Source: a virus. Taken from it: a stretch of 41,102 nt of DNA. Both the position numbers and the translations under genes were made by a program. The notes under the pieces are model-generated. The model had not been told where the DNA came from and searched no databases. It saw only the letters and a list, made by a program, of their open reading frames with translations. Where the stretch lies: UHGV virus genome UHGV-0210063; one strand, written 5' to 3'. Below, one piece after another: positions 3,527 to 4,041 of the stretch (within the stretch, counting starts at the first letter, position 1; each line of letters begins with the position of its first letter).

Positions 3527-3601
3527 TGGAGCGGGCAGCGGGAATCGAACCCGCATCATCAGCTTGGAAGGCTGAGGTAATAGCCATTATACGATGCCCG
3601 C
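3527..3601 (-). tRNA. tRNA-Gly (anticodon UCC)
   Basis: 75 nt cloverleaf, GCGGGCA acceptor, anticodon loop CUUCCAA, TTCGATT T-loop, CCA end; resembles E. coli glyT. Confidence 0.9.
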
Positions 3602-3604
3602 ATA

Positions 3605-3680
3605 TGGTGCCGACTACCGGAATCGAACTGGTGACCTACTGATTACAAGTCAGTTGCTCTACCTACTGAGCTAAGTCGGC
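3605..3680 (-). tRNA. tRNA-Thr (anticodon UGU), copy 2
   Basis: 76 nt, GCCGACU acceptor, anticodon loop CUUGUAA, CCA end; identical to copy at 3810..3885. Confidence 0.85.
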
Positions 3681-3716
3681 ATCAAGTAGCGCGCATTCTA
3701 ATCGCGTGGCCGAAAT

Positions 3717-3801
3717 TGGTGGTGGGGGAAGGATTCGAACCTTCGAAGTCTGTGACGGCAGATTTACAGTCTGCTCCCTTTGGCCGCTCGGGAACCCCAC
3801 C
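3717..3801 (-). tRNA. tRNA-Tyr (anticodon GUA)
   Basis: 85 nt with long variable arm; matches E. coli tyrT/tyrU as recalled. Confidence 0.9.
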
Positions 3802-3809
3802 GGACTTGA

Positions 3810-3885
3810 TGGTGCCGACTACCGGAATCGAACTGGTGACCTACTGATTACAAGTCAGTTGCTCTACCTACTGAGCTAAGTCGGC
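3810..3885 (-). tRNA. tRNA-Thr (anticodon UGU), copy 1
   Basis: 76 nt, identical to 3605..3680. Confidence 0.85.
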
Positions 3886-3887
3886 AC

Positions 3888-3964
3888 TGGACCGCCACCG
3901 GGGACTCGAACCTCGCACACTCAACTTAAAGGGTTGACGCTCTTTCCTGATGAGCTAGTGGCGG
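3888..3964 (-). tRNA. Atypical tRNA-like gene, anticodon loop CCUUUAA (UUU anticodon, C at position 33)
   Basis: 77 nt; perfect 7-bp acceptor stem C1-G72, D-arm with GG, 5-bp anticodon stem, TTCGAGT T-loop, CCA; non-canonical C33 and one T-stem mismatch. Confidence 0.5.
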
Positions 3965-3965
3965 C

Positions 3966-4041
3966 TGGTGGCCCTTGCTGGATTTGAACCAGCGACCTGG
4001 CGATTATGAGTCGCTCGCTCTCACCACTGAGCTAAAGGGCC
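3966..4041 (-). tRNA. tRNA-Ile2 (anticodon CAU, ileX-like; elongator Met not excluded)
   Basis: 76 nt; closely resembles E. coli ileX as recalled, anticodon loop CUCAUAA. Confidence 0.8.

Follow-up and report, generated by a model that had tools for sequence, protein, structure and literature searches.

Probable capture of host thrU-tyrU sequence at a resident tRNA-Thr gene in the tRNA array of a lambdoid phage

Background

How did two identical tRNA-Thr(UGU) genes come to lie on either side of a tRNA-Tyr gene in the tRNA array of the virus genome UHGV-0210063? The tRNA genes of phages are usually explained by their function, either codon supply or counter-defence, and their acquisition is mostly inferred. 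We analyzed the whole 41,102-nucleotide stretch of this genome (hereafter the window) and found that both boundaries and the inner joint of what is probably a host-to-phage tRNA transfer are readable at base resolution. As far as we can judge, it is likely that a resident phage tRNA-Thr gene recombined with the host gene thrU, with one illegitimate joint, inside a predicted tRNA operon located in the late-operon leader of a RecE-type lambdoid phage.

Results

Six tRNA genes, four of them identical to host genes

ARAGORN called six tRNA genes in the window and no more; all lie on the minus strand between positions 3527 and 4041, and each of them also matches the Rfam family RF00005, with scores of 44.4-73.8 bits against a gathering score of 29 and E-values from 2e-6 to 2e-14. 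The first-pass annotation, which named no strand, had given the same gene count, coordinates and spacer range of 1-36 nt, and the two predictors bear it out, neither failing to call any gene. Along the direction of transcription the order is Ile2(CAU), Lys(UUU), Thr(UGU), Tyr(GUA), Thr(UGU) and Gly(UCC), separated by spacers of 1, 2, 8, 36 and 3 nt, and the CCA end is encoded in all six genes. The annotation had also placed two identical Thr(UGU) genes around tRNA-Tyr; these genes, which we call copies A and B, are indeed identical across 78 nt, and their starts lie 205 bp apart. The array and the insertion that it contains are composed as follows.

3966..4041, minus strand: tRNA-Ile2(CAU), called by ARAGORN and RF00005, identical to ileZ
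3888..3964, minus strand: argN-paralogous tRNA called Lys(UUU) by ARAGORN and matched by RF00005 with the lowest score (44.4 bits)
3810..3885, minus strand: tRNA-Thr(UGU) copy A, 100% identical to Escherichia coli thrU, with phage sequence (Lys-GT) upstream and host sequence downstream
3802-3809, minus strand: host thrU-tyrU spacer TCAAGTCC, 8 nt, preceding tRNA-Tyr
3717..3801, minus strand: tRNA-Tyr(GUA), identical to host tyrU
3681..3716, minus strand: chimeric spacer, both halves identical to the host thrU-tyrU locus
3605..3680, minus strand: tRNA-Thr(UGU) copy B, with host leader upstream and phage sequence (TAT-Gly) downstream
3527..3601, minus strand: tRNA-Gly(UCC), identical to host glyT
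3681..3885, minus strand: host-derived insertion of 205 bp, formed by thrU, the 8-nt host spacer, tyrU and the 36-nt chimeric spacer

As host reference we used the chromosomal thrU-tyrU-glyT-thrT locus upstream of tufB (L001), whose match is 100% in 5,421 of 5,426 complete E. coli genomes. At 100% identity, both Thr copies match thrU, the Tyr gene matches tyrU and the Gly gene matches glyT. The array had been described as being of mixed origin, with host-like Tyr and Gly genes and Thr copies unlike those of the host. Mixed origin holds overall, as does the host likeness of Tyr and Gly, but the Thr copies are exact thrU sequences; judged by sequence comparison, the phage-specific genes are instead Ile2 (ileZ) and the gene called Lys (a paralogue of argN).

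The Ile2 gene matches ileZ, as annotated in the Stx2a_F349 phage, at 100% identity and the host tRNA-Ile(CAU) genes ileX/Y at 89.6-92.1%. NCBI's Prokaryotic Genome Annotation Pipeline (PGAP) labels it tRNA-Ile. Its acceptor stem (GGCCCUU/AAGGGCC) contains C4-G69 and C5-G68, the acceptor pairs used by TilS. The CAU gene is thereby predicted to be a tRNA-Ile2 rather than a tRNA-Met, which would read AUA after a likewise predicted lysidine modification. The gene called Lys is a paralogue of the phage gene argN with an altered anticodon loop, and no counterpart was found for it in the comparison with host tRNAs. While the other five genes have a canonical 7-nt anticodon loop with U33, its loop (CCUUUAA) has C instead of U at position 33, and its first acceptor pair is C1-G72.

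The phage Thr and Gly genes stay identical to those of the host even in the HK639-like clade, where the structured trailer downstream of the array is only about 75% identical. Such host identity despite diverged flanks suggests purifying selection, possibly aided by repeated exchange with the host, for which the present event would provide an actual instance.

The extra 205 bp are host sequence with a single inner joint

Every segment of the insertion is identical to the host thrU-tyrU locus, the interval 3681..3885 being one of two equivalent ways to delimit it. The 36-nt spacer between Tyr and Thr copy B consists of ATTTCGGCCACGCGAT followed by TAGAATGCGCGCTACTTGAT. Positions 3716-3701 correspond to the first 16 nt of the host tyrU-glyT spacer, and positions 3700-3681 to the 20 nt that end the host thrU leader, with its -10 box TAGAAT and its GCGCGC discriminator. 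The two halves share no bases at the joint (3701/3700), which therefore shows no microhomology. Read in this way, the insert corresponds to the host unit from position -20 of thrU to position +16 after tyrU, its two ends being joined head to tail; it opens within thrU and sits in the phage Thr gene, so that the flank upstream of copy A (Lys-GT) and the flank downstream of copy B (TAT-Gly) match four-gene relatives of the array exactly. Of the host thrU promoter, the -10 box alone was carried over; the chimeric spacer has no significant fold (z = +0.9), and a scan of it found no promoter.

The 26-nt joint occurs once in the window, and the k-mer GGCCACGCGATTAGAATGCGCGCTAC would mark other carriers. 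The joint was not found in 185,579 GTDB species representatives, in IMG/VR or in the metagenomes of the Joint Genome Institute (JGI), and a 44-nt query over the whole chimeric spacer had no match in the 5,426 complete E. coli genomes. Contiguity of Lys, Thr and Tyr was not found in complete E. coli genomes either, the best coverage (77%) being that of the host locus. A query running from the host leader through Thr and TAT into Gly gave no information, since two separate pieces of the host operon suffice to cover it.

The window equals a common four-gene array plus the insertion

We took 951 bp around the array as a query, which found 249 complete E. coli genomes and several phages with 87% of its length covered. 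Each match consists of two pieces, 745-746 bp in all, and is annotated as Ile-Lys-Thr-Gly; four phage records also carry this order. The best five relatives (H31-H35) are 100.0% identical to the window across the remaining 746 nt, with the insertion absent. Since these relatives are identical outside the insertion, the window can be described as the common four-gene array plus 205 bp. More generally, the four-gene prophage array of phages vB_EcoS-689R5 and PhiR47_1 and of the 249 E. coli genomes lacks the thrU-tyrU segment but is otherwise 99.5-100% identical to the window, and its flanks, junctions, trailer and terminator are shared.

Through the conserved trailer we gathered 80 IMG/VR loci. 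About 48 of them carry Ile-Lys-Thr-Gly, eight carry Thr-Gly, and the rest have other genes in the second slot; neither Tyr nor a second Thr occurs in any of the 80, nor in any complete E. coli genome. We also looked at NCBI assemblies with a Q or GNAT protein exactly like that of the window, both of which proteins are very common. The distance between the Q antiterminator and holin genes measures 796-814 nt, the spacing of the four-gene form, in 18 of the 20 assemblies listed, against 1001 nt here, and in the other two an insertion sequence (IS)-type transposase is inserted in the interval; the 1001-nt gap occurs in none of the 20 listed.

Other relatives differ in gene content. The Shiga toxin (Stx) phage phi467 has Thr-Gly alone, downstream of stxB, PPompW prophages have Ile-Lys-Arg, and Stx2a phages have ileZ-argN-argO. 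Compared across these sequences, the array appears to be modular. Two loci carry other, rare inserts at the Thr/Gly junction: in L022 (767-843, minus strand) it is a tRNA-Arg(CCG) gene with 1-nt spacers, which presumably differs from E. coli argX and would then not be host-identical, and in L012 (251-353, minus strand) it is a stretch of 103 nt that is not a tRNA and includes a hairpin. Insertions may be especially frequent at this junction. In HK639 (HM208537.1, L009), positions 2674-2828 of the minus strand, between Q and the lysis genes, hold an unannotated tRNA-Asn(GUU) call and a degenerate, likewise unannotated tRNA-Gly, the 3' 44 nt of which equal glyT while the 5' half is decayed.

A proposed recombination route from host operon to phage array

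Gene content, sequence identities and the joint with its rarity are direct observations, and the recombination route that we infer from them would start at the resident Thr gene. This gene, base for base identical to thrU, would recombine with the thrU-tyrU-glyT-thrT (tufB) operon of E. coli to give the product Lys-[Thr-8nt-Tyr-16nt|20nt]-Thr-Gly. Both outer boundaries would be homologous, because both fall within the 76-78 nt of perfect Thr identity between phage and host. The inner joint would be illegitimate, because 16 nt after tyrU are fused to 20 nt before thrU without microhomology. In one possible route, a double-strand break in the phage Thr gene would lead both ends to invade host thrU; one end would be copied through tyrU and 16 nt beyond, the other to 20 nt upstream of thrU, and the two would then be joined non-homologously. 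Alternatively, the phage Thr gene could have recombined with the two thrU copies of a tandem duplication in the host, or with the 205-bp unit in circular or multimeric form. The evidence mildly favours the first route, because the duplication is seen in no sequenced host.

The window encodes a RecE-type ExoVIII (14683-17109, plus strand), a protein of 808 amino acids with an Exonuc_VIII domain and a C-terminal Rv2179c-like 3'-5' exoribonuclease domain. A RecE-type system together with about 76 nt of identity makes the homologous steps plausible. Once formed, the 78-nt direct repeats would be expected to recombine and delete the array back to four genes, and such reversion would fit the rarity of the six-gene form.

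The array as a predicted operon in the late leader

The array had been placed between a tR'-like terminator and the holin gene, and this setting is confirmed (tR' at 4143-4178, holin at 3019-3234). On the minus strand the order is Q, a pR'-like promoter, tR', the tRNA array, a structured stretch of 190 nt, a terminator, holin, a DUF1327/YdfR protein, lysozyme and Rz/Rz1. The features around the array are listed below; ORF stands for open reading frame.

4236-4925, minus strand: Q antiterminator gene, upstream of the tR' hairpin
4224..4252, minus strand: pR'-like late promoter TTGCAA-17-TATATT from a consensus scan, overlapping the end of Q, positioned as in lambdoid pR'
4143..4178, minus strand: tR'-type intrinsic terminator AAACCCGC...GCGGGUUUUUU, an inverted repeat (-16.8 kcal/mol, z = -3.1)
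4051..4079, minus strand: sigma-70 promoter-like site of the tRNA operon, TTGCAA-17-TATTAT, from a consensus scan
3343..3525, minus strand: three-hairpin trailer, with hairpins at about 3469-3525, 3395-3467 and 3343-3394
3304..3319, minus strand: intrinsic terminator GCCCGC-UUUU-GCGGGU plus U-tract (z = -3.4), between the tRNA unit and the holin start
3019-3234, minus strand: holin ORF, downstream of the array

The -10 of the operon promoter-like site is followed by the GC-rich CCTGCGCTC, which ends 9 nt ahead of the first tRNA. In alignment the site is invariant in the Stx2a phage and PPompW, and its hexamers and 17-nt spacing are kept in the diverged IMG/VR loci L012 and L022, where the spacer sequence has changed. 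The terminator position is likewise present across relatives, with compensatory changes. A conserved promoter-like site (4051-4079) and a terminator (3304-3319), both recognized from sequence, are the observations that bear on a moron-like nature of the unit.

With regard to expression, we infer a self-promoted, terminator-insulated polycistronic tRNA operon in the late-operon leader. Having its own promoter and its own terminator, it should be transcribed alone in the lysogen while lysis stays off, and induction would add read-through by Q-modified polymerase coming from pR'. RNase P would cut the precursor, and exonucleases would trim the pieces to their encoded CCA ends; this mode of separation, which occurs in bacterial and T4 tRNA clusters, is implied by the spacers of 1-3 nt.

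We compared codon use per 1000 codons between heuristic ORFs of the window and ORFs of one 49-kb host region, which makes the values approximate.

ACA: window 15.3, host sample 7.0
GGA: window 14.3, host sample 9.3
AUA: window 8.3, host sample 6.0
Lys (AAA + AAG): window 55.5, host sample 38.3
Tyr (UAU + UAC): window 29.1, host sample 29.4

Codon supply fits the four core tRNAs and does not fit Tyr. We rejected it as the cause of the Tyr gain, as Tyr codon use equals that of the host sample.

The window itself looks like the complete genome of a lambdoid phage in circular permutation, and not like a prophage flanked by host DNA, because it starts with an HNH endonuclease gene (1-486), ends with a small terminase gene (40606-41102), and has the integrase and tail genes in between. 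The integrase gene (17371-18396) adjoins the tail-fibre genes.

Weighing other origins of the array

The first-pass annotation had taken the two Thr copies as a sign of recent tandem duplication. A plain duplication of phage DNA, with Tyr as an old phage gene, would account for the direct repeat of 205-bp period and for the 100% identity of the copies. However, just 78 of the 205 bp are present twice, Tyr and the spacers are absent from relatives, so that none has a single-copy Tyr to duplicate, and the spacers between the tRNA genes consist of leader and intergenic sequence of the host. The proposal was therefore dropped, as the extra DNA is host thrU-tyrU with host flanks set at a resident Thr, and a plain duplication is scarcely credible. 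Another conceivable history reverses the direction of change, with the six-gene array ancestral and the four-gene arrays derived by deletion between the Thr repeats. Direct repeats of 78 nt that lie 205 bp apart should indeed delete readily, but Thr-3nt-Gly is found in both diverged clades (about 75% trailer identity) beside different upstream partners, and the flanks of the sole six-gene copy match those of particular four-gene relatives at 100%. With flanks identical to four-gene relatives and Thr-Gly in both clades, parsimony places the insertion at the tip. Phage flank is moreover found upstream of copy A and downstream of copy B, as insertion into an existing Thr gene predicts, and we regard an ancestral six-gene array as highly improbable.

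Recombinational capture of host DNA, our preferred reading, has points against it. The six-gene arrangement is seen in one sequence only, and joining that needs no homology is rare in E. coli. The codon values rest on heuristic ORFs and a single 49-kb host region. Host identity does not date the event, because both Thr copies equal thrU, because phage Thr does so also in lineages whose flanks are about 25% diverged, and because these tRNA loci are nearly invariant (98.6-99.1% identity in Salmonella). In addition, a short-read assembler could have been misled by the 78-nt repeat shared with the host if the host operon was duplicated: the true phage array would then have four genes, and the assembler would have threaded the phage path through a tufB operon with duplicated thrU-tyrU, by way of the shared Thr and Gly. 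The phage Thr and Gly genes equal host thrU and glyT across 75-78 nt, which is longer than many assembly k-mers, and the arrangement is a singleton. Still, the joint needs a real molecule, and it is absent from the 5,426 complete genomes and the 185,579 species representatives. The path exits the host unit exactly within Thr on both sides, giving a clean in-register insertion, and the window resembles a phage genome rather than a chromosomal contig. Taken together, these observations make an assembly artefact very unlikely.

A different question is whether the same structure was gained under selection, the tRNA-Tyr gene (and the doubled Thr-UGU) replacing tRNA-Tyr lost to retron-Eco7 PtuAB or to colicin E5. 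The retron-Eco7 effector PtuAB depletes tRNA-Tyr, and E. coli TyrU or TyrV expressed under a strong phage tRNA promoter rescues phage infection (Azam et al., PMC11555353); that phage tRNAs counter tRNA-targeting nucleases has been proposed as a general idea (PMC10264068). The lack of Tyr codon enrichment in the phage, which leaves the gain unexplained by codon supply, points in the same direction. On the other hand, the variant is a singleton with no sign of spread, a host-identical tRNA stays cleavable, the promoter here is a predicted one, and a neutral accident fits the data equally well. Selection for the gain is possible but on the unlikely side, and the additional Tyr gene may be a neutral, short-lived product of recombination.

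A variable gene in the second slot

Across phages, the gene in the slot called Lys here keeps its acceptor, D and T arms, and its anticodon arm is highly variable. Its anticodons include UCG (argN), UCU, UUU with C33 (the window), AAA, UAA and UUA, and some homologues have loops cut to 4-5 nt and are unable to decode. The loci compared were 3888-3964 (minus strand) of the window, L004, L006, L011, L012, L015, L022, L038, L073 and L076. This variability suggests either anticodon switching or a non-decoding, tRNA-like role as decoy or processing signal. It may be relevant to the evasion of anticodon nucleases (PMC10264068).

A conserved structured trailer

Downstream of the array, the minus strand from 3526 to 3290 folds into three hairpins and the terminator, with an energy of -81.7 kcal/mol and z = -5.5. 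We aligned 27 sequences that represent two clades; 98.1% of the cells are paired, against 39-50% when the partners are slid, and 12 pairs show two-sided compensatory change, against 0-4 in the slid controls; most of these two-sided changes split the two clades and thus represent few independent events. The long inverted repeats noticed in the first pass are accordingly real (3395-3467 and 3469-3525), conserved and covarying, but the attenuator or processing role suggested for them is not supported. From its sequence and predicted fold, the element would be a conserved structured 3' trailer of the tRNA unit, with stabilizer, processed small RNA (sRNA) or sponge, and termination aid as candidate roles. 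It occurs in more than 120 IMG/VR contigs and in HK639, there beside the degenerate Gly gene.

The trailer matches no Rfam family at E-values up to 5. We also rejected its identity with PasA/PasC, the holin-adjacent sRNAs of enteropathogenic E. coli (EPEC). The probe sequences are absent even at 3 mismatches, and the trailer has no alignable similarity to the esterase-to-holin interval of E2348/69, which holds PasA.

Further features of the window

The transcript region between pR' and tR' (4143-4227, minus strand) shows sub-threshold likeness to the Salmonella prophage sRNAs IsrK (22.7 bits) and IsrJ (24.5 bits), whose gathering scores are 50 and 37, respectively. The RNA from this region could be a StxS- or 6S-like short late transcript. 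Elsewhere, a hok/sok type I toxin-antitoxin locus (7456-7781, minus strand) has a sok antisense RNA scoring 112 bits and a 70-amino-acid ORF (7456-7668) with a Hok-like hydrophobic peptide at its end. A full-length gene for the DicF sRNA (13990-14041, plus strand; 76.7 bits) is typical of Qin/Rac-like prophages. The GNAT acetyltransferase ORF (939-1424, plus strand) is flanked by the HNH and Rz genes and runs against the direction of the late genes, a moron-like placement, and the assembly collection lists its exact protein in more than 7,000 blocks.

Discussion

A tRNA cluster in the late region of lambdoid phages is well known, and the insertion of host thrU-tyrU into it is previously unrecorded. 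The closest known system is the ileZ-argN-argO cluster of 933W-type Stx phages, located after Q and ahead of stx and the lysis genes. The array in the window shares with it the position from Q/tR' to the late genes and the promoter-like element, its first tRNA is 100% ileZ, and its second is built on an argN scaffold. In contrast, the second slot here has UUU with C33 instead of UCG, argO and stx are missing, and Thr, Gly and the inserted Thr-Tyr come next. The order Ile2, Arg, Arg directly after tR' is not found, and ileZ alone is conserved as such.

With the tufB operon of the host, the array shares thrU, tyrU, glyT, the 8-nt spacer, the 20-nt leader and 16 nt of the tyrU-glyT spacer, all identical. 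The order here is instead Thr-Tyr-Thr-Gly, without thrT, tufB or the -35 element; the 116-nt tyrU-glyT spacer is cut to 16 nt, and the phage TAT links Thr to Gly. Order and flanks thus differ from those of the host cluster, of whose promoter the -10 box alone is present.

The illegitimate joint recalls the formation of lambda bio and gal phages by illegitimate recombination of the specialized-transduction type, in which host DNA is also joined through a non-homologous joint. Here, however, the host DNA measures 205 bp and lies inside the genome, far from the attachment site (att), and both of its outer boundaries are homologous (tRNA-Thr). The tRNA regions of the virulent phages T4 and T5 likewise consist of packed tRNA genes processed from one precursor. 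The array here differs in that it belongs to a temperate phage, and in that four of its six genes copy the host exactly where those regions have diverged phage tRNAs. Rescue of phages from PtuAB and PrrC by tRNA-Tyr and tRNA-Lys is documented (PMC11555353).

Going further, host-identical phage tRNAs might act as recombination landing pads for the fast gain and loss of neighbouring host tRNAs, with the Tyr gain a selected response to defences that cleave tRNA-Tyr (retron-Eco7 PtuAB, colicin E5) and not an accident. We put this forward as a speculation that is more probably wrong than right by a wide measure.

The present case is a single event, seen in one genome, in a class of elements that is well known. 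In it, a host-identical resident tRNA gene would have served as the homologous entry point, and one illegitimate joint would have closed the event. Ongoing exchange with the host would also offer an explanation for the host identity of Thr and Gly amid diverging flanks. Finally, phages with four and six tRNA genes that are otherwise identical form a natural isogenic pair for the question of whether tRNA-Tyr serves in counter-defence.

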